Assembly (NCBI GenBank): GCA_001875255.1
Contig: MJAN01000003.1
Coordinates: forward strand, 53,186 to 117,185
Origin: Candidatus Sabulitectum silens
Lineage (GTDB): Bacteria; Fermentibacterota; Fermentibacteria; Fermentibacterales; JCC-6
DNA: 64,000 bases
Direction of reading: 5' to 3'
Of the stretch, positions 9,955 through 36,052 are shown in pieces. The notes below the pieces were generated by a model. That model did not search any database and was not told where the DNA came from. It saw only the letters and a program-made list of their open reading frames with translations. A program made the translations under genes and the position numbers. Position 1 is the first letter of the stretch. The number at the start of each line of letters is the position of its first letter.

Positions 9955-10296
9955 TCAGCCCTTCAGGCTTTCAAGTGCTTCCTGCTCGTCGGTGTAGGTC
10001 TCGAAGATGGTTATGAGCTTGGTGATTATGAAGAGCTCGTGGATCTTCTTGGTGGCGTTGAGAATAGCCATTTTTCCGCCAACTCTGGAGATGGATGTAT
10101 GTCCGCTGACAAGGACTCCCAGCCCGGAACTGTCCATCCAGCTCACTCCGCCGAGATCCAGGAGAACATTGCCCATGTCGTTGTTCACAGCGGTCTGGAA
10201 AACGGTCTGGAGCTCCATGAGATCCGGGCCGCTGATGACCTTGCCGTGGAGCCTTATTATCTTGATGCCTTCCTTCATTTCCTCTTTGATCTTCAC
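9955..10296 (-). CDS. STAS-domain anti-sigma-factor antagonist (RsbV/SpoIIAA-like)
   Basis: KIIRLHGKVISGPDLMELQTVFQ...LLDLGGVSWMDSSGLGVLVS (conserved phosphorylatable Ser in the DSSG context). The likely GTG start at 10296 sits 6 nt after AAGGAGG. Confidence 0.85.
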   Translation of the reverse strand: MKIKEEMKEGIKIIRLHGKVISGPDLMELQTVFQTAVNNDMGNVLLDLGGVSWMDSSGLGVLVSGHTSISRVGGKMAILNATKKIHELFIITKLITIFETYTDEQEALESLKG

Positions 10297-10302
10297 TGTA
10301 AC

Positions 10303-10309
10303 CCTCCTT
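10303..10309 (-). promoter_or_regulatory. Shine-Dalgarno (AAGGAGG) for the STAS gene and downstream partner-switching operon
   Basis: Reverse complement of 10303..10309 reads AAGGAGG, followed after 6 nt by GTG in frame with the STAS ORF. Confidence 0.5.
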
Positions 10310-10507
10310 GAAAGAGATCCGTTGAAATTCACCAACTCATGAAGAATAGATAATTATCGGGCCGATGTCATGAGCAGAGAACAAAGTCCCTCCAGTTCAC
10401 AAGGCCTCTGCCCTCCAGGAACGCCCTTATCCGCTGTCTTGCTCCGGGTTCCCTGGAGGCTCCCAGGACTGGGATTCCGTCGTGGTGGTCCCAGGTGCTG
10501 CCCGGTA

Positions 10508-11374
10508 TCACCGGAGCCCCCTCAACAGCGGTCTGGTAATCCTTTCCACCGGAGCCAGGAAAGCCGCTATGGAAAACCCCTCCCTTTTCATGTGGCCGGA
10601 GAGGCGCCTGGCGCACTGGCCGGTGCCGGCGATGTATACCCTTTTGTCGGCGAGGCAGGGCACATGCTTCAGATACATCGCCCTGGTCTTGTAAAAGGAG
10701 GTAAGGGAATACATGGGGGAACTTCGGCTGAAACGCTCCCTTCTCTCCCTCCAGGCCAGGAGCGTCTTCGGTACCCTGTAGAATCCGTATCCCGTGCTCC
10801 ACAACCTGAGCCAGAGCTCATAATCCTCGGGAAGCCCTATGTCCCGGTATCCACCGGCCTCAAGGACGCCCTTCCTGCTGTAGAACGCCGTGGGATGGGG
10901 AACCGGGCTTTCGATGAAAAGGGAGTGTTCTATTTCCTCCGGCGTCTCCGTGGCATTGATCCAGCTTTCATACCGTCTGTAACCCCGGCTTACCAGCCTA
11001 TCTGGAAAACAGCGGACCCGGGATGTTATGATGGTCCTTTCCCCCAGCTTCTCCCCGGCACGGTGCTGAAGCATTAGCCTTTCCGGATGGCAAATGTCGT
11101 CACTGTCGAACCTGGCGATCCATTTGCCCCCTGCCTGCCCAAGCCCGGTATTAAGGGCCTGGACGAAACTGCCCTTGCAGTCCAGCAGCCTGAACCGGGG
11201 ATCCGCGGAGGCGTATTCTGCGGCTATCCTTCGGGAACCGTCCCTTGACATGTTGTCCAGCATCAGCACCTCGAAATCGGTAAAGGTCTGATCGACAAGG
11301 GATTGAAGAGCCCTTTGAATAAAGTCACCGGTGTCCTTGAATGGCATTACAACGGAAACCGCAGGGGCAACCAT
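10508..11374 (-). CDS. family 2 glycosyltransferase
   Basis: VSVVMPFKDTGDFIQRALQSLVDQTFTDFEVLMLDNMSRDGS...FDSDD, a GT-A fold DxD-type signature. Confidence 0.8.
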   Translation of the reverse strand: MVAPAVSVVMPFKDTGDFIQRALQSLVDQTFTDFEVLMLDNMSRDGSRRIAAEYASADPRFRLLDCKGSFVQALNTGLGQAGGKWIARFDSDDICHPERLMLQHRAGEKLGERTIITSRVRCFPDRLVSRGYRRYESWINATETPEEIEHSLFIESPVPHPTAFYSRKGVLEAGGYRDIGLPEDYELWLRLWSTGYGFYRVPKTLLAWRERRERFSRSSPMYSLTSFYKTRAMYLKHVPCLADKRVYIAGTGQCARRLSGHMKREGFSIAAFLAPVERITRPLLRGLR

Positions 11375-12165
11375 TCAGCGCATTCCTTCATAGGCATCGG
11401 CGAGGTCTGAAACGGTGATGACCGGAGGGCTGCAGGCAAGCCCCACGCAGAGCTGGGCATAGGGCCAGCCGGTCATGGGAAGATAGGCCTCTTCCATCAG
11501 AAGGGAGTCCCCGGGAAGTGTAGGGTCCAGGATGTCCACATTGTCACCGGCCAATCGGTTAGCCTCCGCTGCAAGCTGGCCTGTGAGGGGGTCTCCCGGG
11601 GGGCCCACCACATAAACATGGATATAGATCTCCTCCTCAGGGGGGAGGGGCTCCCCAGCGGAGGCTCCGTAGAGCGCGGCAGAGAACCATTCCCCGCTCC
11701 GGGCTCCCACGGCCCTTCGGGACTCTTCACCCCCGCCGTCGAGAACAATGGTAACCGGAAGTGCGTCAGGCAGACCGTATCTGGCTGAAACGGTTTGCGC
11801 TTCGGAGGGGTTCAGCCATACCACCGTGAGACCCACCGGACGGTTCTCAAGGAAACTGCTCAGTGTGGAGAGATCGGGATCGCCTATGTCCACCGCCAGG
11901 AAAACTGCGTCTCCCTGCAGTTCCCTCTGCAGATGTTCCAGTTCGGGAAGCTCACGAACGCAGGGAGCGCACCAGGTGGCCCAGAAATTAAGAAGGACCG
12001 GCCTTCCGTCTGCTTCCGCCAGCACGCTGTCCAGGGCGGCGATCCCCAGAATAAGTTCGCCCCCTGGCCATACCCTTCGACGGTATGGTGGGAGAGAAGG
12101 ACCACAGGGACCGGAACAAGGAGAAGAAGGGTAAGGGGGATCCAGAAATGCCTTCTCATCTTCCC
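11375..12165 (-). CDS. thioredoxin-like thiol:disulfide oxidoreductase (TlpA/ResA family), frameshift near 12025
   Basis: [20 protein letters not shown] (WCxxC). The N-terminal membrane anchor [22 protein letters not shown] is found in the adjoining frame (ORF 11884..12270). Confidence 0.7.
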
Positions 12166-13031
12166 GCTCCGTGTGAGATGGCCTTCACGGGACAGGAGGA
12201 AATGCACTTTCCGCACCTTATGCACTCGGCACTTGAGGGTTCGAGGTATATGTCGATGCCCATGGGACACACCTTACCGCACTTCCCGCAGCTGACACAG
12301 GAATTCGATACCTTCATCCTCACAACGGAGACCCTGCCGAGGATACCCCATGCGGCCCCAAGCGGACACAGGGCCCTGCAGAAGGGTCTTTCCACTGTAA
12401 CCGCCCATAAAAGAACAAGAACGGCGATGGATGTTTTCCACCAGAACAGAAAGCCCAGTTCGAACTCGATAGACGAGGCAGAGACCAGTGGCCAGCCTGC
12501 CAGGGAAGTTCCCGCGGGACAGACGATCTTACAGAACCAGGGGTCGCCGGCCCCCCCGGGAACGGTCCTTAGGAATGCTGGAAGGGACAGTACAAGAATG
12601 AACAGCAGCGCGTATTTAGCCGGCCTCAGGGAATCCTGAAAGGAAAGACGGGGAGATGGGATCCTGTAAAGAATGTCCTGCAGAAGCCCGAAGGGGCAGA
12701 ACCATCCGCAGGCGAATCTGCCGGCAATGAGACCCACAATGGCGATGAATCCAACCACGGCCCCCACTATGAGGGCGTCCGGACGCATGGTGGCAAGCAT
12801 CCCCCAGAAGTTCGGTGTGGCGAGAATGGACTGAAGGCTGCCAAGGGGACAGGCGAGGACACTTGATGGACAGCTGTAGCAGTGGAGCCCCGGGATCATG
12901 GCAACCTTTGACGAGCCTGTGTATATGGTGCCGGAAACCCACCCGGAAAGGTGCAGATTCGTGGCGAGAAGAGCGCCGAACTGCACTGTCCTCCTCAGGA
13001 GGTTCTGGTTAATCAGCCTATTCCTATGCAT
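12156..13031 (-). CDS. membrane-bound 4Fe-4S polyferredoxin (CcoG/NapH/FixG-like)
   Basis: Multi-TM N-terminus with CGWFCPFG motif, then two CxxCxxCxxxCP clusters ([24 protein letters not shown]). Confidence 0.7.
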
Positions 13032-13140: not shown

Positions 13141-13215
13141 TGGAGGCGGCGACCAGATTCGAACTGGTGAATGGTGGATTTGCAGTCCACTGCCTTCCCA
13201 CTTGGCCACGCCGCC
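13141..13215 (-). tRNA. tRNA-Cys (anticodon GCA)
   Basis: Reverse complement GGCGGCGTGGCCAAGTGGGAAGGCAGTGGACTGCAAATCCACCATTCACCAGTTCGAATCTGGTCGCCGCCTCCA folds as a cloverleaf: 7-bp acceptor stem, GTGGA/TCCAC anticodon stem with loop CTGCAAA, TTCGAAT T-loop, encoded CCA. Confidence 0.9.
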
Positions 13216-14679: not shown

Positions 14680-14755
<76 letters not shown>

Positions 14756-24797: not shown

Positions 24798-26744
24798 CTA
24801 TCTGCACTCCGCCACTATCTCGATGAAGCTCTCCGCCCTGAGGCTGGCGCCGCCCACCAGGGCTCCGTTAACATCGGTCCCTGCCATTGTAGCCTCGGCG
24901 TTATTCGGCTTGACGCTGCCCCCGTATATTATTCGCAGGTCCCTGGCGAAGTCGTTGCCCTCGAGGTTCGCCACCCAGCCCCGGATCAGTGAATGAACCC
25001 TCTGGGCTTCCTCGGGGGTTGCTGTCTTTCCGGTACCTATGGCCCATACCGGCTCATAGGCGATGACCAGGTTGAAGGGAGTGGCCTCGTCGTGGCCGCC
25101 CAGGGCAGCCTCGATCTGACCCCTTACCACTTCCTCGGTCCTTCCGGCTTCCCGCTCCTCCAGCAGCTCACCCACGCATAGAACGCAGTAGAGTCCGGAC
25201 CTGAGACCGGCTATCAGCTTCCTGCGCACTATTTCGTCGGTTTCACCGAGTATGTGCCTTCTTTCACTGTGTCCGGCCAGGAACCACTTGCATCCGGCCT
25301 CCAGAAGCATTTCCGAGCTTATCTCACCGGTAAAGGCTCCCCTTTCCTCCCAGAACAGGTCTTGGGCGCCCAGATCCACCCCGGCCTTGTCCGCCAGGTT
25401 CGAGAAGGAACGGAGAAGGGTGAAGGGGGGAACACCACCACATCGGCGCCGAAGTAGTTGACGTTCCCCTCGTCAAGGGCGGTGAGATAGTCCATTCCCA
25501 TCTCGTATGTGCCGTTCATCTTCCAGTTGGCGCCTATGAAGGGTTTCACACCGTCTATTTTCAGGTGTTCCAGTGCCGGGAGTTCCTCACCCTGAAGAAG
25601 CTTCAGGGAGGCTCCCCCCCCGGTGCTTACATGGGTTATCTGCTCCGCCACACCGGCTTCCCTCACCGCCCTCATGCTGTCGCCTCCGCCTACCACGGCG
25701 TCGGCGCCGAAACTGGTGGCGTCGGCCATGAAGGCTGCCAGCTTCCTGGTTCCAACATCGAAGGGGGGAACCTCAAAGAGTCCCATTGGGCCGTTCCATA
25801 CGATGGTCTTGCTGTCCATCATGGTCCGCCGGAAGAGATCGATGGTTTCCGGTCCGATATCGAAACCCGCCATGTCCGCCGGAAGATTGTCGTACCGGTA
25901 GGCACCGGCCTGGGAGCCCTCCTCCCTGGACGGGGCACAGATTATGTCCCGGGGAAGCAGAAGGTTCACTCCCCTCTCCTCTGCGGCTTTGATGATATCC
26001 TTCGCGGTCTGTATGCGGTCTTCCTCCACAATGCTTTTTCCGGTTTCCAGCCCCATGGCGCGGAAGAAGGTAAAGGCCATTGCACCGCCCACTATCAGGT
26101 TGTCCAGCTTGGGAAGGACATTCTCGATAAGGGCGACCTTATCGCTGATCTTAACGCCTCCCAGGATCACGGTGTAGGGTTTCCTGGGGTGTTTGATTAT
26201 CTCGCCGAAAACCCTCAACTCCTGCTCCACCAGGAAGCCTACGTATCCTCCGCCCAGTATTCCCGGAATTCCAACCATTGAGGCGTGCTCACGGTGACTG
26301 GTTCCAAAGGCGTCATTCACGTAGATGTCCGCCAGGGCCGCAAGTTTCCTTGAGAAATCGGGATCGTTGGAGGTTTCCTCGGGATGGAACCTCAGGTTCT
26401 CAAGAACGAGCATCTCCCCCGGGGCCAGGCCTGCGGCCATGGCCTCCACCCTTTTTCCTATGCAGTCGTGGGCGAAGAGGATCCTGGTTTCCTTAAGTAT
26501 TTCCCTGAGCTTCTCCGCCACGGGCTTCATGCTGAACGGGATCCATTTTCCCTCCGGGTCTTCCCAGATGGGAGGCGAGGATCACTGGAGAACCCTGTTC
26601 CGTGAGGTGTCTGATGGTCCTGAGGACGGACCTTATCCGGGTGTCGTCAAGTATTTTGCCACCCTCGATGGGTACATTGAGGTCCGCCCGGAGGAAGATC
26701 CTTTTCCCTCCGGTCTTCAGGTCTCTTATTGAGGGGTACTGCAT
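24798..26744 (-). CDS. pgk/tpiA: phosphoglycerate kinase fused in frame to triosephosphate isomerase (PGK::TIM); frameshifts near 26500 and 25380
   Basis: PGK N-terminus SIRDLKTGGKRIFLRADLNVPIEGG and core ...GGGDSMRAVREAG...STGGGASLKLLQGEELPALEHLK. It runs without a stop into the TIM N-terminus IDGVKPFIGANWKMNGT. TIM C-terminus ...HSERR...AYEPVWAIGTGKTATPEEAQ... is in ORF 24798..25379. Confidence 0.85.
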
Positions 26745-27774: not shown

Positions 27775-28811
27775 TCAGCCGAAGAATAGTTCCGCTGTTT
27801 CTATGTCAGATTCCGGAACGGTCTTCAGTGTTCCCACAGCCTCGGAAAGGTCCGCGGCAACAACTTCCGTTCCCCTTAGAGCAGCCATTTTTCCGTTCTC
27901 CCCGGATTCGGCGATCTCCACTGCCCTCACCCCCAGCCTTGTTCCCAGGACACGGTCGAATGCCGAGGGACTGCCTCCCCGCTGAACGTGACCCAGGACC
28001 ACGTGGCGTGTTTCAAGGCCGGTCCTGTCCTGAATTTCGTTCTTCAGGACCTCGCCGATACCTATCCCCGTACCGAGCTGAACATGGCCAAAGGCATCGG
28101 TTTCCGCCGAGTGGTAGACATGCCTGGCAAGCCCGGGGTCGATGGCCCCTCGGCCACCGCCACAATTGCGTATCTTCTTCCCTGCTCATATCTTTTACGG
28201 AGAGCGTCGCAGAGCTTGTTGGTATCGAACTCCTTCTCCGGTGTCAGTATGAAATGAGCCCCGCCTGCAATTCCTCCATGGAGGGCCATCCAGCCGGCGT
28301 GGCGGCCCATGATCTCAACCACCATCACCCGTTCATGGCTTTTCGCGGTGGTTTTCAGTTTGTCAAGGGAATCCATCACATAGTTAATGGCGGAATCGAA
28401 ACCGAAGGTGAAATCCGTTGCTGAAAGGTCGTTATCTATGGTCTTGGGCACGCCGACCACGGAAACGCCCATTTCCGCCAGTGTCACCGCCACCCCAAGG
28501 GTGTCTTCTCCTCCCACGGCAATGAGAACGTCGATCTCGTTCTTCTCCATGGTCTCCCTGATCCGCTGGAATCCGTTCTCCACCTTCCGGGGGTTGGTGC
28601 GGGATGAGAACAGTATGGTCCCGCCCTGGGTGTGAATGTCCAGAACGCTGTCGCGGTCCAGGCTCACCGAGGTGTCTTCGATGGCGCCCTTCCAGCCCCT
28701 TAGAAAACCGGTCACCCTGTGACCGCCGGCCTCGGCCTTCACCACCACTCCACGAATAACGGCATTGAGTCCCGGGGCGTCGCCTCCGCCTGTCAGTATT
28801 CCTAAATGCAC
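27775..28811 (-). CDS. pfkA: ATP-dependent 6-phosphofructokinase (frameshift about 28060-28130)
   Basis: MHLGILTGGGDAPGLNAVIRGVV...AVGGEDTLG...VGVPKTIDNDL...VVEIMGRHAGW. C-terminal MVLGHVQRGGSPSAFDRVLGTRLG in ORF 27775..28002. Confidence 0.85.
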
Positions 28812-28814
28812 TTG

Positions 28815-31264
28815 TTACCTCCTGATCTTTTCCTGAAATCGGCAGGGTGATTCCCCCGCGGCAGAAATAATTCCGGCAAACCTGTCGAACTCTTCCAGGG
28901 ACAGGGACTGTCCGCCGTCGGAAAGGGCTTTGTCCGGGTCGGGGTGAACCTCTATCATCAGGCCGTCGGCCCCGGCGCCCAGCGCCGCCAGTGACAGGGG
29001 AAGGATCAGGTCCCTCCGCCCGGCTGCGTGGCAGGGGTCTGCGATAACCGGAAGCCCGATGGAATCCCTGGCCAGGGGAATGGCGGATATGTCAAGGGTG
29101 GCCCTTGTCCAGGTTTCGAAGGTCCTTATGCCCCTTTCACAGAGAACGATGTGCTCGTTTCCCTCCTTAAGGATGTACTCCGCAGCCAGAAGCCACTCCT
29201 CCACGGTGGCCATGAAACCCCGCTTCAAAAGCACCGGCATGCCGCTTCGCCCTATCTCGCTCAGGAGTATGAAGTTGTGCATGTTCCTGGCGCCGACCTG
29301 AAGCATGTCCACATACTCGGCGGCGGTCTCTATCTGCTCAGGGGACATCACCTCGGTAACCACGGGAATACCGAATTCGTCCCCGGCTTTCCTGAGTATG
29401 CGAAGGGCCTCCTCGCCGAGTCCCTGGAACGAATAGGGGCTGGTCCGGGGTTTCCAGGAGCCGCCCCTGAGGACACCGGCGCCGCTCTTCGCCACTGTTT
29501 CCGCTGTCCTGAGGACCATTTCCTCGTTCTCAACGGAACATGGGCCGGCGATCAGCACCGGACCCGGGCCGCCGAAAACGGCGTTCCCCACTATCACGTG
29601 TCTGATAGGCATGCTAACCCTTCCCAGACTGTTCACGATGTATCTGATAACCTCGCGGACAATGCTGTCGGAGAGGGGGCCGGGGTTATGCCCCATGGCA
29701 TTCTTGACCTGCTCCTCGACCCAGTTCGGGTTGAAACGGGAATCGATTTTTTCCATCAGATCCGCTCTCGCATTCAGTAGTTTAACCAGATCGACATCGA
29801 GCCGAAGAAGCTCGGATCTGTAGTCCGGTTCTACGTCCTCCCGGCCTATCTTGGCCCTGTCAAGCTTGCCTGAGACAGTCCTCGGGAGGCCCAGAACGAA
29901 ATTGTACTTCCTTGGCATCTTGAAGTCTTCAAGGATGTTCATCAGAAAGCTGCGGAGGTCCGGAACGGAGAGTTCCTCGCCGCCCCGGAGCACGATGTAT
30001 GCCACCGGAGCCTCTCCCCTGCCGGGGATGTCCTCTCCCACAACGCAAACATCCCTTACCGCCGGGTGCTTCAGTATGGCAAGCTCCACCTCGCTGGGAT
30101 ACACCTTCAGCCCCGAGGCCTTTATCAGCCCTCCACGCCTTCCGGTGAAGTAGAGCCTGTGGCCTTTCCTTGTGAAGATGTCACCGGTACGGTACCAGCC
30201 ATCTATGAGTACCTCGGATGAATCGGATCTCTCGCCGAGGTAGCGGTTCACTATGCCCTCGCCGGCTATCCAGAGTTCACCCCTGCCGTCCTTCTCCACC
30301 ACTCCGTTGTCCCCGCGGAGCTGTATGTCGTAGCCGCTGACCACCCTTGAGAATCCGGCGATCCCCGGTTCGCCCACAAGGACCACCCCGGAGGTTTCCG
30401 TGCTTCCCCATACCGGGGTTACATCCTTTCCCGTTCGGTCCCGGAATGAACCCAGGAACCGGTCGGTAACCCTCATGCCACCGGCTTCGATTATCCTCAG
30501 AGAGGAAACGTCGGCATCCTCCCGGGACACCAGTCGGCTCATGGCGTCGAGCTGGGGCGGAAGCCCCATGAGGAAGGTAACGGCATGGTCCCTTATCATT
30601 TTCAGGTGTTCCCGGGGGTAGACCGAGGGCTCAAGGACCGTGGTGGCCCCGAGGTAAAGCCCCCTGAGGAATATCTCGTGGGGGTGTCCGATTACACCGA
30701 AAAGGGACATGAGCACATCGGAATCGGTAAGGCCGAGGGTTTCGCATACCGCGGCGGTGTTGACCATGAGTTCCCTGTGGGTGCTCACGGCCACCTTCGG
30801 AAGACCGGTGGAGCCGCTTGTGACATTCATGTAGAAGTCGTCAAATACCCCAACCGTAGGGGTTCCCCGGGCTGAAAGTGCAGGGGATGTGATGTCGTTC
30901 CTGGAGAAGGGAAGGATAGTTCCCGCCTTCCATCCCTCGACGTCCATTCCCTCCCAGCAGAGGATGAATTTCTTGTTCCACCTGGTGAAGACCATCTCCC
31001 TGTCCTCGGAGAGCCAGCTGGGATTCAGGCCGAGAAACCTGCCCCCACCCGGGATATGGCGGTGAAGGCAACCGGCAGGCTGCATTCCCTGCCCACCTGA
31101 ACGCCGACAAGGGTGTCCTTTTCCACACCGGCACTGAGAAGCCGTCCGGCCAGATGCTCCGATGCCCGGTGCCACTGGGCGAAGGTAAGGGAACTCCGGC
31201 CATCCAGGATGGCGGTTCTGTCAGGTCTTTCCATGGCCCACTTCTCCAGCAGGCCATGGATGGT
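28815..31264 (-). CDS. AMP-binding (acyl-adenylate-forming) enzyme continuous in frame with chorismate mutase-like segment and 3-deoxy-7-phosphoheptulonate (DAHP) synthase; frameshift near 31030
   Basis: N-terminus MTIHGLLEKWAMERPDRTAILDG (ORF 31025..31435). Adenylation core TSGSTGLPKV, WGSTET, YRTGD, VSGKLDR. Then with no stop RSELLRLDVDLVKLLNARADLMEKI (AroQ-like helix). Then the KDO8PS-type DAHPS catalytic domain LIAGPCSVE...RGGSWKPRTSPYSFQGLG...GARNMHNF...ADPCH. Confidence 0.7.
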
Positions 31265-31274
31265 CATGCTCTCT

Positions 31275-32406
31275 CTAATCAACCTTTTTGCCGCACTCAG
31301 GGCAGAACTTGCTGCCCCCGGGAACATCGGCGCCGCACTCACACTTCTTTCCGGCTCCCGCCCTGGCTCCGCACTCCGGGCAGAACTTGCTGCCCGGGGG
31401 TATTGAACTTCCGCAGGCGGCGCAGGACACCGCAAGGGGTTTTCCGCACTCGGGGCAGAACTTGCCGTCCTTGACTGTCTTTCCGCAGGAGGGACAGGTT
31501 ACACCGGAAGGAGCCGGGGCAGCCTGGCCACCTCCGCCCCCTCCGCCTCCGGAGGGCTGATTCATGGCCTGGCCCATCTGGTTGGCCATGGCCATTCCCA
31601 TGCCCAGTCCGGCACCCATTCCAACACCGGCGCCGGCGTCCTCCGCCCCTGCGGTTGCGGCGTCGCCCATTGCGGTGGCTGTCTTGAAGCGCATGTATTC
31701 GTTCATGTCCCCAGGGCCCCCATGGCGCTTCTCTCGTCGATGCGCTTCTGGACCTCCTCAGGGGGGGTGATGGCGCTTATGTAGAAGTCCACCATCTGTA
31801 TTCCGTATTTGCTGAAGTCGTCGGCAAAACGGCTCTTGGCCAGGGTTCCAAGTTCATCGTAGTAGGCGGCCAGGTCGAAAATGGTCTCAAGTGTCTCGCC
31901 CAGCAGGTCCGCAAGCCTGCTTATTATCATGTTCTTCAGGAAGCTCTCGATGGAGTCGGTGGAATACCTGCCCTCGGTTCCAACGATCTTGTTAACGAAA
32001 AGCTGGCTGTCCACCACCTTCATGGAGAAGTTTCCGAAGGCCCGGAGCCTCACCATGGAGAGCTCCTTGTCACGGAAGATGATGGGCTCCTTGGTTCCCC
32101 ACTTCATGTCGGTGAAGGTCTTTTTGTTCACATAGTAAACCTCGCACCTGAAGGGCGTGCCCTCTCCGGAGAAGGCCATGTCCACAAGGCCGGCGAGGAG
32201 CGGGATGTTCTGTGTGGTGAGTGTGTGTCTTCCCGGTCCCAGCACATCCATTGCCTTGCCGTCGCGGTAGAACACCGCCTCCTGGTTCTCACGTACCACG
32301 CACTGGCTTCCCAGACGGAACTCCCCGGAACCTGCTCGGGTATCCTGTGGGCCATGGATTTTCCGGTACTGTCAAGGAACTCGATTATTTCAGGCCGCTT
32401 GAACAT
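31275..32406 (-). CDS. SPFH/band-7 domain protein with three C-terminal zinc-ribbon repeats (YdjI-like); two frameshifts
   Basis: MFKRPEIIEFLDSTGKSMAHRIPEQ (ORF 32128..32406). SPFH body NQEAVFYRDGKAMDVLGPGRHTL... Gly-rich linker. Then TCPSCGKTVKDGKFCPECG / VSCAACGSSIPPGSKFCPECG / CECGADVPGGSKFCPECG. Confidence 0.7.
31295..31470. repeat. intragenic tandem repeat, about 75-bp period x3, encoding KFCPECG zinc-ribbon units
   Basis: ccgcactc(a/c/g)gggcagaacttgc(t/c)g occurs three times at about 31293, 31367 and 31444. It lies inside the SPFH gene. Confidence 0.6.
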
Positions 32407-33027: not shown

Positions 33028-34022
33028 CTACCTTACGGCATTAATGTTCCTGGCGTGACCGGCGGCGGTGGTGGCGAAAAGGTGTTCCCCGGAACCATCT
33101 CCCCTGCTTACGAAGAAAAGATAGCCTTCGGTGGTGTCCGGTTCGGCAACCGCCATCAGTGACGCGGTCCCCGGGGAGCATATGGGCCCCGGGGGCAGAC
33201 CGTTGTTCCTGTATGTGTTGTAGGGGCTCTCTATCTCCAGATCACTGAAAAGCAGCTGCTCCCGTACCTCGCCCAGGGCGTACTGAACCGTGGCGCAGCT
33301 CTCCAGGCGCATTCCCCTTCTAAGTCTGTTGATGAAAACACCGGCAACAAGGTCCCTTTCACCGTCCGAGGCCGCCTCCCTTTCAACGATGGAGGCCAGT
33401 ATAACGCCCTGGAACGGGGTCAGTCCAACCGCTTCGCACCGGGCTTTCCACCCGGCGTCCATCACTCCCTGGCCGGTGGCCACGATCCTGTTCACCACCT
33501 GCCATGACCTGAGTGTGTCGGCGAATTCGTATGTCTCCGGGAAAAGATAGCCCTCGAAGCAGGGTATGTTCATGGCGCTGAGGAACTCGTTGTCACGGGA
33601 GAGGGACTCGAGCTCCTCCGGCGGGAAGCCCATGGCGCTGGAGAGCAGTTCCAGGCTCTCCTCCTGTCGAAGACCCGGGGGAAGTGTAACCCAGACCGTG
33701 GGCACAGGGATCACATCCCCCCTTGTGAACATGGTAAGCATTGTGTCTATGGCCATGGTGTCCGACAGGGCGTACCTCCCCGCCTGGAGCGACTGGCCGT
33801 TGAAGAACCGTCTGTAGCGCAGAAGGACCATCCAGCGGCTTCTGACCAGCCCGCTGTCCTCCAGGGCAGCGGCGGTGGTCCGGACTCCCCAGCCCCTTTC
33901 AAGGGCCAACTCGATGTTCCTGCCGGTGCCCGGGGGGCTTTCCAGCTTCCTGTACAGGAGCAGCGCCGCCAGGATCACAGCCAGGATCACAGCAAGGAAC
34001 CGCAAAAGGATCTTGGATCTTT
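33028..34022 (-). CDS. mltG: endolytic murein transglycosylase MltG (YceG family)
   Basis: Start MKRSKILLRFLAVILAVILAALLLY (TM anchor), then a YceG-like body ...VTLPPGLRQEE...CFEGYLFPETYEF...GVILASIVEREA.... Confidence 0.85.
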
Positions 34023-34023
34023 T

Positions 34024-34440
34024 CATAATATGTTCAGGTACCTTTTCAGTATTTCGCAGGCGGCCAGGGAATCCACATGACCCTTCCTGTCCTTCCTGCC
34101 GGTAAGACGCACAGCCTCCCTCGACGAGCGGGCCTCGTTCACCAGGTGAAGGGCAAAACCCATCTCCTTTATCCTTTCTGCGAGAACCTCCACCTCGCTG
34201 CTCAGCTCGGTGGGTTTCCAAGGGCCGACAGGGGGTGCCCCAGAACCACCTCCACCTCTCCGTATCTTTCCTCAGTTCATCCAGCCTGTTCAGTATGTCC
34301 TTCCATGTTCCCCGGACTGGCTCCGAGGGAAGGACAACGCCCTGGATATGCACCGCAATACCGGTTCTCCTCCTGCCGTAGTCCACTGCGAGAAGCACCA
34401 TCAGAACACCCTTCGCCTGAGGTCCGCCATCCCGGCCCTG
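34024..34440 (-). CDS. ruvX: Holliday-junction-resolvase-like putative pre-16S rRNA nuclease YqgF/RuvX (frameshift)
   Basis: VLMVLLAVDYGRRRTGIAVHIQGVVLPSEPV, an RNase-H-like YqgF start. The remainder lies in an adjoining frame and ends immediately before mltG. Confidence 0.7.
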
Positions 34441-36052
34441 TACATCAGGAAACTCACAATGGCTCCAACGGGCATCATCAGGAACACGATGGAGTCCCGT
34501 ACCGGCCCGGCCAGCATGGCCTCGGTGAAATTGTCGGTCATGTAGCGCCTGGTCACAACGGAAAGGACGGTTACCACAAAAAGCACGAAGGCAACCGAAG
34601 CGAAGGCGGTAATGATCCCCCCCTGACCGCTGGAAACGCTCACAGCACTCCCTTCGCCGCTTTTCAGGAAAATGCAGCCCATTGTGATGTTGATGGTGGA
34701 CAATACGAATGCGGTGATGAAAATGCAGGCCACGGACTCTATCTGAAGCAGGGCTCCGGCACCGATGCTTCTGGTGGAAAGCCAGGCAAGAACGCTGGCG
34801 GGAAACACCGATAGCAGCAGGGTCTGCGTCCACTTTGAGCGGTAGAAGAGCTCCCTGCCCCGTGGCAGCTGTATCATGGCGTGAGACCCGGGGCCTCCAT
34901 GCTGGGTGCTGGAAAGGCGAACCTCACCATCATGGTTGCCACCACGAAGGCGCTGAAGGAGATGTTGATGAATATACCAACGGCAAGCCAGTAGGGATTG
35001 CCGAAGTCGATGGGGAATCTGTTCAGGTTGATGACATAGATCGCGAACATCCCTGCCAGAAGCCCCAGCTGGCTCCACTGGACCGGGTCCCTGAGGAACA
35101 GGAGCACATCCTTCTGAAAAATTGTGGAAGCCCGGCCCCCGTCCCTGAAGAAAAGGGATGACTGGTAACGAACGGAAACCTCGGCGGAGCGGTTCCAGGC
35201 CTTGAGATACTTTCCAGAGGCAAGGAAAAGCGCCGCCAGAACCAGAAGCATGGCCTGGCAGGCAAGCAGAAGACCGGAAACCAGGCTGCCCCCCACCCAT
35301 GGCCCGGAGGAAAAGCGAATGGGGCCAGTATCCGGTGTTCTGGCTGGGCAGGCCGGAAACGAACTCCTGCAGTCCCCCCAGCTGCATCCCCGGGGCCTCT
35401 TCAATTACGAGATCGGTGCTGGTGCCGCTGGCAAAGAAAAAGAGGGCTCCGCTTCCAGCGATCAGGGCGATCCCCCCGAAGAGCTTCCAGCCGTTCATCC
35501 CCCCCAGCCGCCCGAGGAGCACCGTTACCACTGTTCCCAGGGCGGTCCAGCACAGAAGCATCAGGGGATAAAGGAGAAAGCCCAGGGTAAGGTGTACCTC
35601 GCTGAAGGCCAGACCACGGGCGAAGGCCAGAAGGATGGGATAGCCCATTAGAAGCATTGTCCAGCCGGCATTGAACCAGCTTCCAGCACCGCGGAAACCG
35701 CCATGGAGGAGTGGTTGGCCGAGGAGGCGAAGAGAAGGGTCGTCCGGGGAGAACGGTAAAGGGAGGAGTTCCCGGTGATCAGCGAGGAAACCCCCACGAA
35801 CACACCGAAGGCAAGGAGGGCCATACCGAACAGCCGGGAGGCCAGGGCGGTGCCGAAACCGTAGAGTTCAGCATCGAGGGAGGCCAGGTAACGAAAAAGC
35901 CCCCGGAACATGTGGTAGAAGCCGAAGGCCATCACCCCCATGGTTATGACTCCGGCAATGAGCTTCAGACGGTTGTTCTCCCACTCCTCCGCCAGACCCC
36001 CGGCGAAGGAGCGGAGCTGCATTAAAAGAAGGATTCGCAGATGGCTGAACAT
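34440..36052 (-). CDS. large polytopic membrane protein (possible ABC-2/putative ABC exporter permease), multiple frameshifts
   Basis: ORFs 35648..36052, 34874..35404 and 34401..35657 together encode more than 10 hydrophobic helices (e.g. LIAGVITMGVMAFGFY, LLAGMFAIYVINL, VAFVLFVVTVLSVV). No soluble domain. Confidence 0.4.

Follow-up and report, generated by a model that had tools for sequence, protein, structure and literature searches.

The window, by which I mean the whole 64,000-nt stretch of Candidatus Sabulitectum silens DNA that was analysed, carries on its reverse strand two adjacent genes that run together in the sequence as given. Gene 1 (29617..31264, minus strand), matched by the database proteins P0001 and P0033, is predicted to encode an acyl/aryl-CoA-ligase-like enzyme of the ANL superfamily that ends in a tail resembling chorismate mutase (CM). 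Gene 2 (28815..29612, minus strand), from an ATG at 29612 to a stop at 28815-28817, is predicted from HMMs and from comparison with the loci L001 and L005 (see below) to encode a bare type Iβ DAHP synthase (DAHPS) of 265 aa, with no regulatory extension of its own. The window's ORF list contains one ORF of 786 codons (28815..31175, minus strand) in which Pfam and NCBIfam models find the domains of both genes in a single frame: AMP-binding at residues 114-313, AMP-binding_C at 362-437, CM_2 at 453-515, and DAHP_synth_1 at 539-770. The CM_2 match is weak, its 17.9 bits falling below the Pfam cutoff of 27. PF00501 and PF13193 both exceed their gathering scores on this ORF (97.6 and 61.3 bits), and AMP-binding is also matched (44.3 bits) on a separate ORF, 31025..31435, that covers the N-terminus of the ligase in another frame.

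A first-pass annotation of this DNA took the region to be one frame of about 820 aa joining ligase, CM, and DAHPS. Its local observation was accurate: translation of 29811-29880 (minus strand) gives ...TVSGKLDRAKIGREDVEPDYRSELLRLDVDLVK..., free of stops, and within ORF 28815-31175 the ligase does read directly into the AroQ-like helix. The single long frame, in contrast, does not exist. The span from 31264 to 28815 is 2450 nt, not a multiple of 3, and the ATG at 31264 lies in a different frame that meets a stop at about 31025. The ligase itself is broken at 31043..31047 (minus strand), a homopolymer deletion where the plus strand has five Cs and six are expected (CCCCCC in L005), which leaves the N-terminal ORF in a different frame from the remainder of the gene and so precludes a continuous reading.

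A second homopolymer deletion lies at the junction between the CM-like tail and DAHPS, at 29618..29620 (minus strand), where the gene strand reads GGG and GGGG is expected. The expectation comes from L005, a contig of the same strain that shows no substitutions relative to the window over 5849 nt, and from L001, the locus of a 95%-identical orthologue, both of which have the fourth G. In L001 the order is GGGG, TAG, one base, ATG. With GGGG, the window would read GGA AGG GGT TAG C ATG, so that the ligase would end ...NSLGRG-TAG and the ATG of DAHPS at 29612, preceded at a distance of 5 nt by the purine-rich GGAAGGGG, would follow after 1 nt. The TAG is present in the window (29614..29616, minus strand) and latent: with one G missing it is no longer in frame, and translation of the ligase continues through the join into DAHPS as '...NSLGRVSMPIRH...'. 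Both L001 and L005 are annotated with separate genes, a 571-aa ligase and a 265-aa DAHPS, the ligase of L005 being itself split by a frameshift of L005's own. A stop (TAG, TGA, or TAA) separates tail from DAHPS in all 30 of the 30 tail-bearing loci that have a DAHPS match nearby. Most Fermentibacteria have a spacing between -4 and about +8 nt; in most of the others it reaches about 70 nt at most, and in one locus it is about 1 kb. The same-strain contig, the orthologue, and these 30 loci thus agree that CM-like module and DAHPS do not form one polypeptide of the AroA(G) type. As judged by the second assembly and the orthologues, then, the continuity seen in the window would be the product of a one-base deletion, and two separate, tightly packed genes have almost certainly been merged by an error of sequencing or assembly. 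The first-pass annotation had considered that two genes might have been merged by indels, which was right as to the merger. It suspected the AMP-binding/CM junction (29780-29900) and a compensating pair of errors, however, and what comparison with L005 and L001 reveals is a single deletion at the CM-to-DAHPS junction (29612-29620), the place where stop and start codons emerge once the G is restored.

How far should L005 be trusted? Its only differences from the window are eight single-base homopolymer indels, and at each of the eight the variant that leaves the ORF intact is the one that matches L001. Two of the eight are homopolymer errors of L005, which therefore is not by itself an error-free reference. 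In the window, 12 of 21 syntenic genes have a broken frame, among them those for PFK, GAPDH, PGK-TIM, and the ligase, and nearly all the lesions are losses of a single base within a run. A published Sabulitectum genome was built with Ion Torrent data, and frameshift errors were explicitly reported for it (PMC5763382), which may bear on the window. At roughly one homopolymer indel per kb, any odd fusion or split found here needs first to be checked against relatives.

Perhaps instead the frameshifts are real and the window is part of a decaying genome full of pseudogenes. That would account for so many broken genes within 21 kb and for the gene for GAPDH, which is interrupted in the window and in L005 alike. 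It would not account for two assemblies with no substitutions between them that nevertheless disagree at eight homopolymers, always with the L001-like variant intact, nor for lesions that are almost exclusively single-base losses from runs and that strike core glycolytic genes, in a genome whose sequencing may have been subject to the Ion Torrent errors just mentioned. I consider genome decay very improbable.

A narrower version holds that the strain truly has the one-base deletion and makes a genuine ligase-CM-DAHPS protein of about 820 aa with three functions. The ORF is, after all, open in the window as given, and its tail and DAHPS portions together exceed the cutoff of the bifunctional DAHPS/CM family NF009239 (363 bits against 279, over residues 451-771), matching model positions 8-351 of 360, in effect end to end. 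That score is obtained only on the fused translation, probably an artefact, and would support common descent rather than architecture. A triple fusion would also be a plausible evolutionary intermediate between the arrangement in Fermentibacteria and that in locus L074, described below. Against it, L005, from the same strain, has both GGGG and the stop; the ligase is frame-broken 1.4 kb upstream, so that the protein could not be made from the ATG at 31264; and lesions of the same kind afflict those 12 of 21 neighbouring genes. No triple fusion appeared among the matches listed in the protein and locus searches: the best 120 listed matches out of 5.8 billion proteins each cover at most 62% of the fused ORF, and the best 150 matches to the tail profile, out of 1.84 billion cluster representatives, are all 600 aa or shorter. 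There is very little chance that such a protein exists in this strain.

One might still suppose that ribosomes undergo a programmed +1 shift at GGU-UAG-C, yielding some fused protein that the window happens to mimic. In the Sabulitectum clade DAHPS does lie in the +1 frame immediately after the stop. From species to species, the spacing (-4, +1, +2, +8 nt) and the stop (TAG, TGA, TAA) vary, so the frame required is not conserved; the junction has no slippery motif; and DAHPS has its own ATG behind the purine-rich stretch. The idea is barely credible.

The ligase-to-CM junction is a different matter. Between 29700 and 29900 there is no indel in the window relative to L005 or L001, the two independent assemblies are collinear and identical across the junction, and over 100 proteins in the databases, 540-600 aa long, have the same junction. 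An indel error at this position can be dismissed on the grounds of the indel-free comparison and of conservation in every homologue, contrary to the earlier suspicion about 29780-29900. The fusion of the ligase to the CM-like module is real and conserved.

Corrected, gene 1 would encode about 550 aa from the ATG at 31264 (MTIHGLLEKW...); in the window it suffers the frameshift at 31043-31047 and loses its stop. P0033 is 100% identical to it, and P0001, annotated from an upstream start and hence 571 aa long, is 95% identical. By its domains and core motifs its product is predicted to be an ANL adenylate-forming enzyme. Translation and alignment place motif A3 (YMNVTSGSTGLPK, of the TSGxTGxPK type) at 30795..30833, the hinge motif A8 (GWYRTGD, of the GWxxTGD type) at 30180-30200, and A10 (PRTVSGKLDR, with the catalytic Lys) at 29856-29885, all on the minus strand, and the motif residues of all three are invariant in an alignment of 67 sequences. 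The AlphaFold2 monomer model of P0001 is a confident ANL fold, with a mean pLDDT of 87.5. The best single-domain matches to the ligase among solved structures, at 147 bits, are benzoate-CoA ligase (4EAT, 2V7B) and 4-chlorobenzoate-CoA ligase (1T5D), with which it shares the full set of intact ANL core motifs. It differs from them in its tail: none of the solved ligase relatives has a C-terminal CM-like extension, and the query is unmatched beyond about residue 504. The ligase part reaches the cutoff of no NCBIfam CoA-ligase family (PRK06187, the best, 203 bits against 476; benz_CoA_lig 146 against 375; MenE 141 against 330). Assignment of a substrate was abandoned, given these scores and the generic nature of the ligase's neighbours in the PDB, which are aryl-CoA ligases and NRPS A-domains; the 194 bits scored by LgrA are the sum of two A-domains.

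The tail (PDYRSELL...NSLGR[G]; 29617..29828, minus strand) is about 70 aa long and is a three-helix AroQ-type domain of the subtype that regulates DAHPS, to go by profile matches to the PDB, a residue census, and AlphaFold2. Its homology to AroQ/CM_2 is established: the closest solved relatives of the tail profile are 2D8D, 3NVT, 5J6F, and 5GMU (E values 2e-16 to 1e-11, the lowest for 2D8D), and the model of P0001 has three helices at 503-528, 534-546, and 554-570, with 10-residue block means of pLDDT of about 71-89. The best match, 2D8D, is a stand-alone protein of 90 aa from Thermus thermophilus, labelled 'DAHP synthase/chorismate mutase'. It demonstrates that this subtype of CM can exist apart from DAHPS, though as a small free-standing protein and not as the C-terminal appendage of an ANL enzyme. 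The others (E values 7e-13 to 1e-11) belong to the CM-DAHPS proteins of Bacillus subtilis (AroA(G), CM domain 5GMU), Listeria monocytogenes (3NVT), and Geobacillus (5J6F).

Does the tail catalyse anything? The polar active set of AroQ enzymes consists of R11', R28, K39, D48, R51, E52, and Q88 in EcCM, equivalent to R10', R27, K38, D47, R50, E51, and Q86 in BsCM_2 (PMC5526877), and the 57 tails from Fermentibacteria were scored on the BsCM_2 active-site list of that paper. Every one of them has R or K at the R10 position and keeps R27, and the D47 position is D or N. The loop bearing K38 is deleted in 57 of 57, R50 has become W in 56 of 57, E51 has been replaced by V, L, A, or M in every one, and Q86 is absent, the protein ending before that position. 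Of the seven polar residues used in catalysis, the tail has thus lost four (K39, R51, E52, and Q88 by EcCM numbering; K38, R50, E51, and Q86 by that of BsCM_2), all retained in BsCM_2 and LmCM (PMC5526877), and it does not present the catalytic AroQ set. It is under purifying selection despite these losses.

It has to be asked nevertheless whether the genes are separate and the tail a working mutase, in which case gene 1 would be a bifunctional ligase/CM that supplies the cell's CM activity. R10 and R27 are conserved, the related CM_2 domain of B. subtilis is measurably active (PMC5526877), and one member of the family is named 'chorismate mutase' in UniRef. Moreover, the fusion tails scanned from outside Fermentibacteria score 37-63 bits, above the Pfam CM_2 cutoff, and CM_2 is found in the precomputed Pfam annotation as well. 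The tail in the window falls well short of that cutoff, however, and the K38 loop, R50, E51, and Q86 are lost or replaced throughout the Fermentibacteria census; even in the candidate phyla LCP-89 and Zixibacteria, manual alignment finds tails with no Lys at K38 and usually no E51. A working mutase is improbable, and I infer from the residues that the tail is not one. More probably it dimerises and binds a ligand, acting as a regulatory or docking module. Since the two carboxylate-binding arginines are kept, it could still bind a dicarboxylate resembling prephenate or chorismate. Another reading, attractive in principle, took the tail for an isochorismate-pyruvate lyase like PchB that would supply a salicylate-adenylating enzyme. 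It was rejected: the match to PchB has an E value of only about 0.09, and the tail lacks the residues common to IPL and CM.

The product of gene 2 scores 263.9 bits against PF00793 and exceeds the cutoffs of the type Iβ DAHPS models NF006421 (392 bits, above 335) and TIGR01361 (363, above 268), while KDO8PS models give 118-121 bits, under their own cutoffs. The metal and substrate motifs of DAHPS, GPCSVE, KPRTSPY, DPCH, and E-x-HPDP...SD, are all found in the translation, and the enzyme is predicted to be a type Iβ DAHP synthase. The first-pass annotation likened the locus to the CM::DAHPS of Bacillus AroA(G). This is sound as homology, the solved structures closest to the tail being CMs attached to DAHPS: the N-x-G-P loop is found in the tail, the DAHPS is likewise of the Iβ family, the order is CM and then DAHPS, and the ORF boundary falls within the inter-domain linker. 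It fails as architecture, in that the CM-like module in this lineage is part of the ligase polypeptide, covalently joined to the upstream enzyme, with a stop codon before DAHPS.

Type Iβ DAHPSs are a textbook case of allostery by recruitment of regulatory domains, CM-like or ferredoxin-like. What is found here is the regulatory module of DAHPS placed on another enzyme, the product of the gene directly upstream, phylum-wide and with a remodelled pocket. The split arrangement, ligase-CM-like followed by DAHPS, is a real and undescribed variant; full-text searches found no paper on a fusion of AMP-binding and CM or on a DAHPS-linked ligase family, and nothing relevant on Fermentibacteria and shikimate. 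It is also recurrent, a ligase with a degenerate CM-like tail being encoded just upstream of a bare DAHPS in Fermentibacteria and in LCP-89 and Zixibacteria, with the exception of one clade. In that clade (P0109, locus L088) the ligase bears the tail, yet there is no DAHPS within 6 kb, which implies that the tail does not need a neighbouring DAHPS in order to function.

The other way of distributing the three modules, a ligase and then a CM-DAHPS, is found in some Desulfobacterota. In L074 a tail-less ligase overlaps a classical 359-aa CM-DAHPS gene by 4 nt, and in L039 and L040 the order is ligase, ADH, CM-DAHPS. Tail-less sister ligases occur in EPS-type operons of Desulfobacterota, Nitrospirota, and Planctomycetota; they are 30-33% identical to the ligase of the window and share its family-specific motifs VWGSTET and HPHE, and at five of their loci a gene for CM-DAHPS lies next to the ligase or close by. 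They differ in having no tail and in their conserved neighbours: instead of glycolysis genes, these comprise genes for a Bac_transf sugar transferase, for an IolM-like Zn-dehydrogenase, and for Wza/Wzc. Sister lineages with a classical CM-DAHPS and a tail-less ligase make this a testable case of domain hand-over, possibly of trans-allostery.

I propose that gene 1 (31264..~29617, minus strand) encodes an ANL adenylate-forming enzyme whose AroQ CM-like C-terminus is of the subtype usually carried by type Iβ DAHPS, that gene 2 (29612..28815, minus strand) encodes a bare type Iβ DAHPS of 265 aa starting 1 nt past the TAG of the ligase, and that a change of GGGG to GGG, an error of the type that affects about half of the neighbouring genes, merges the two in the window. 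The tail may then link the ligase functionally, perhaps physically, to the DAHPS translated with it. The arrangement would amount to a 'split AroA(G)': the boundary between the two ORFs, once ahead of the CM module, would now lie behind it.

A bolder extension is possible, though I think it more apt to prove wrong than right: that ligase-CM and DAHPS assemble into a hetero-complex by which the start of the shikimate pathway, or in LCP-89 and Zixibacteria of a pathway to DAHP-derived glycans or lipids, is coupled to activation of a carboxylic acid, and that the boundary migrated between ligase plus CM-DAHPS (Desulfobacterota) and ligase-CM plus DAHPS (Fermentibacteria, LCP-89, Zixibacteria). 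If so, DAHPS would have handed its allosteric CM-like module to the neighbouring adenylate-forming enzyme, and the locus would document an ORF boundary crossing a domain between adjacent genes. There are precedents for allosteric assembly of CM and DAHPS, including in trans, as the proposed model would have it: MtCM and MtDS of Mycobacterium tuberculosis form a non-covalent complex (PMC4281200), and in the DAH7PS-CM of Prevotella nigrescens the CM is on the C-terminus of DAHPS (PMC8408635). Neither involves a third enzyme, and the mycobacterial system differs further in its type II DAHPS and catalytic CM, to which the tail profile is weakly matched (E value about 0.006-0.008). Whatever its mechanism, an uncharacterised family of DAHPS-linked ligases is brought to notice here. 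Outside Fermentibacteria the ligase/DAHPS pair lies in clusters of the glycan or lipid type, so its role may not be the control of aromatic amino-acid synthesis.

The open reading frame at 28815..31175 on the minus strand (786 codons) does carry three modules without interruption. Pfam places AMP-binding at ORF residues 114-313, AMP-binding_C at 362-437, a sub-threshold CM_2 at 453-515 (17.9 bits, gathering score 27) and DAHP_synth_1 at 539-770, all four within a single frame, and no stop codon occurs around 29811-29880, where the translation is ...PRTVSGKLDRAKIGREDVEPDYRSELLRLDVDLVKLLNARADLMEKI.... The read-through from adenylate-forming ligase to chorismate mutase (CM) to DAHP synthase (DAHPS) noted in the first-pass annotation is thus present in the window. 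NCBIfam assigns the C-terminal part to the type Iβ DAHP synthases (NF006421 at 392 bits, cutoff 335; TIGR01361 at 363, cutoff 268), and NF009239, the model for bifunctional DAHPS/CM, spans residues 451-771 (363 bits against 279). One continuous frame of about 820 amino acids, however, does not exist. The ligase N-terminus (MTIHGLLEKWAMERPDR..., ATG at 31264) belongs to ORF 31025..31435, which is in a different frame and stops near 31025, and the 2450 nt from 31264 to 28815 are no multiple of three.

With the whole ORF as query against 5.8 billion proteins, every one of the approximately 120 strong matches listed is 540-600 aa long and covers only about 61% of the ORF, consisting of AMP-binding, AMP-binding_C and a CM-like tail, whereupon the protein ends. 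Their sources are Candidatus Sabulitectum, Aegiribacteria and Fermentibacteria, with Zixibacteria, LCP-89 and others at greater distance. P0001, the closest among them (95% identical), has the C-terminus '...IVNSLGRG', and on L001, the contig that encodes it, the ligase gene occupies 10001-11716 and DAHPS is a gene of its own, 265 aa, at 11718-12515. Aligned at the boundary between tail and DAHPS, the window reads GGGAAGGGTTAGCATGCC and L001 reads GGGAAGGGGTTAGCATGCC. The version with four Gs is GGA AGG GGT TAG, C, ATG, so that the ligase ends '...GRG' at a stop and DAHPS begins 1 nt on, while the three-G version of the window is translated G R V S M P, in frame with DAHPS.

The decisive comparison is with L005, a contig of the same strain from the Logan assembly of SRR3166460. 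Over 5849 nt it differs from the window by no substitutions and by eight single-base indels, all within homopolymer runs. L005 has the fourth G at 29618-29620 and also a sixth C at 31043-31047, which restores the N-terminal frame of the ligase. It lacks a base itself at two of the other sites, and at all eight the variant that leaves the ORF intact is the one in common with L001. There is very little room for doubt that the tri-domain frame is no real feature, only the artefact left where an indel-rich assembly has lost one base of a homopolymer run.

The junction between ligase and CM-like tail, the one checked in the first-pass annotation, is a different matter: it is genuine, kept in homologues, and window, L005 and L001 are collinear across it (29700-29900). 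The ligase::CM-like fusion is real and conserved. It is also rare, found in about 10 of the best 150 cluster representatives matching a tail profile (fragments counted), and a literature search found no paper describing it.

Errors of the same kind abound nearby. When 21 genes called on L001 were translated and compared by tblastn with the syntenic part of the window (19639-41232), 12 showed at least one frame change, amongst them phosphofructokinase (at 28150), GAPDH (27515), PGK-TIM (25431 and 26537/8), the Band_7/zinc-ribbon gene (31709 and 32333), RuvX, two ABC-transporter genes and the ligase. Single-base homopolymer deletions occur there about once per kb, and nearly all unpaired blastn gaps are single bases absent from the window, many in short homopolymer runs. 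The same error process is responsible for a second chimeric ORF (33028..34833, minus strand, 601 aa), which crosses the 3' part of an ABC_tran_2 gene out of frame and continues through RuvX into YceG, three separate genes in L001. A draft genome published for Sabulitectum silens rests on Ion Torrent data, and according to its authors CheckM could not be used because of frameshift errors (PMC5763382); from taxonomy and type of error, I infer that the window comes from that project. Any ORF-level oddity in the window should be compared with relatives before it is believed.

Might the cell itself join the two frames? Sampling one genome per species, a scan yielded 80 loci, and in the full set 30 loci have a tail-bearing ligase and a nearby DAHPS match. 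In all 30, the tail ORF closes with TAG, TGA or TAA before DAHPS begins. Most Fermentibacteria have a spacing between -4 and about +8 nt (three of their loci go up to ~60 nt when measured by alignment start); most other lineages stay within about 70 nt, and locus L034 has ~1 kb. That both spacing and stop codon vary argues against programmed frameshifting. None of the loci surveyed contains a ligase-CM-DAHPS fusion, and none of the best 150 tail-profile matches, out of 1.84 billion cluster representatives, exceeds 600 aa.

What, then, is the tail? A profile built from 16 tails was compared with solved structures. Its best relative is the 90-aa 'DAHPS/CM' protein of T. thermophilus (2D8D, E 2e-16), then the N-terminal CM domains of the DAHP synthases of Listeria (3NVT), Geobacillus (5J6F) and B. 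subtilis (5GMU), with E 7e-13 to 1e-11, whereas other AroQ enzymes are far weaker (E ~0.006-0.008 for M. tuberculosis CM, ~0.09 for PchB, 0.6 for E. coli CM). The tail also keeps the N-x-G-P...D loop of DAHPS-attached CM domains, with N, G and D invariant and P in 65 of 67. The active site of the B. subtilis domain, BsCM_2, comprises R10', R27, K38, D47, R50, E51 and Q86, equivalent in that order to R11', R28, K39, D48, R51, E52 and Q88 of the E. coli enzyme (PMC5526877). In a census of 57 Fermentibacteria tails, by BsCM_2 numbering, position 10 is R or K and position 27 is R in all 57, and position 47 is D or N. K38 is gone, its loop 7-8 residues shorter in every tail; R50 is W in 56; E51 is V, L, A or M in all 57; and Q86 is absent, the protein stopping one or two residues short of it. 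The substituted residues are themselves conserved, which argues that the tail is a remodelled domain under selection and not a decaying one. Judged by the standard AroQ mechanism, a tail with such residues is not expected to be a chorismate mutase. In other phyla, the tails scanned exceed the Pfam CM_2 threshold; in a manual alignment they too lack Lys at the K38 position and usually E51 and Q86. AlphaFold2, given P0001 with 67 homologues, predicts a confident ANL fold (mean pLDDT 87.5) and models the tail as three helices (503-528, 534-546 and 554-570; pLDDT about 71-89 in 10-residue block means). The profile also found P0158, 455 aa, in which an N-terminal CM_2 is fused to YceG (MltG). In Fermentibacteria, YceG is encoded upstream of the ligase, three genes away, a parallel that is possibly coincidence.

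The CM-like domain of related DAHP synthases serves in feedback regulation, and its role is viewed as regulatory rather more than as catalytic (PMC5526877). Bienzyme allostery is described in Prevotella (PMC8408635), and non-covalent CM-DAHPS complexes in M. tuberculosis (PMC4281200). The pairing of ligase-tail with DAHPS is a new form of this theme, in which CM-like regulatory modules are tied to type Iβ DAHP synthase. The ligase has all ANL catalytic motifs and is nearest to aryl-CoA ligases among solved structures; none of the NCBIfam ligase models tested on it reached its curated family threshold. I propose, with rather less than even confidence, that the tail is a regulatory or docking module that would dimerise, bind a dicarboxylate and link the co-translated DAHPS, bare in the window, to the ligase.

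That proposal is weakened by three kinds of neighbourhood. One tail-bearing clade (L088) has no DAHPS within 6 kb of the ligase-tail. In LCP-89 and related loci the ligase-tail/DAHPS pair occurs with a Wzx-type flippase (L004 and L089; also L032, L034 and L066 by gene-cluster comparison), joined in L004, L032 and L089 by a B12-radical-SAM enzyme. The clusters at L004 (6001-13773) and L089 (6001-13764) run ligase-tail, DAHPS, Polysacc_synt flippase, B12-binding radical-SAM, SPASM radical-SAM and PMT_2 glycosyltransferase, with a lipid-A-type acyltransferase in addition in L004; there, DAHPS looks unlike a gene for aromatic amino acids. Lastly, tail-less ligases lie in a strongly conserved operon (L029-L076) of Bac_transf, ligase, IolM-like dehydrogenase and Wza/Wzc-type export proteins, a module whose function I did not find described in the literature. 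Bac_transf, a polyprenyl-phosphate sugar transferase, is fused to an NTP_transferase domain in the one member scanned (L044), and the Zn-dehydrogenase scores 519 bits with the NCBIfam model of scyllo-inosose 3-dehydrogenase IolM, whose cutoff is 450. Across Desulfobacterota, Nitrospirota and Planctomycetota, 33 loci contain the dehydrogenase and 29 contain the sugar transferase. From these clusters and this operon, the ligase family may serve a glycan or lipid pathway.

Tail-less relatives are common in those same three phyla, at 30-33% identity and sharing the VWGSTET and HPHE motifs. In five loci the tail-less ligase has a classical CM-DAHPS gene adjacent or close by: in L074 (3929-6600) the ligase stop overlaps the start of a 359-aa CM-DAHPS by 4 nt, in L039 (3938-7873) and L040 the IolM-like dehydrogenase intervenes, and in L048 and L061 CM-DAHPS lies just upstream. 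The order of modules is the same, ligase, CM, DAHPS, with the ORF boundary placed either before or after CM. When after, it falls exactly in the CM-DAHPS linker. Whichever arrangement they come from, the DAHPS catalytic domains resemble the window enzyme to about the same degree (51-59% identity). A genuine fusion of all three modules could be imagined as an intermediate, one that the window imitates by accident. In a manual alignment, the CM-DAHPS gene at L074 and L039 shows a degenerate CM domain, with F for R27 and M for Q86.

In Fermentibacteria, unlike the glycan- or lipid-type settings above, the neighbours of the ligase/DAHPS pair are glycolysis genes. PGK and TIM form one 649-aa fused gene in L001 (14588-16537), which is Sabulitectum-type, and the window is collinear with it by tblastn at 24801-26744 (minus strand); in Aegiribacteria and other Fermentibacteria (L002, L003) they are separate. 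A PGK-TIM fusion is known in Thermotoga. Upstream of the ligase lies a Band_7 (SPFH) gene (31275-32406, minus strand) with a Gly-rich linker and repeated C-terminal zinc-ribbon (DZR) motifs, split by frameshifts into three ORFs in the window; its adjacency to the ligase is kept in most Fermentibacteria loci. The window also encodes tRNA-Cys(GCA) at 13141-13215 and tRNA-Gly(GCC) at 14680-14755, both on the minus strand.
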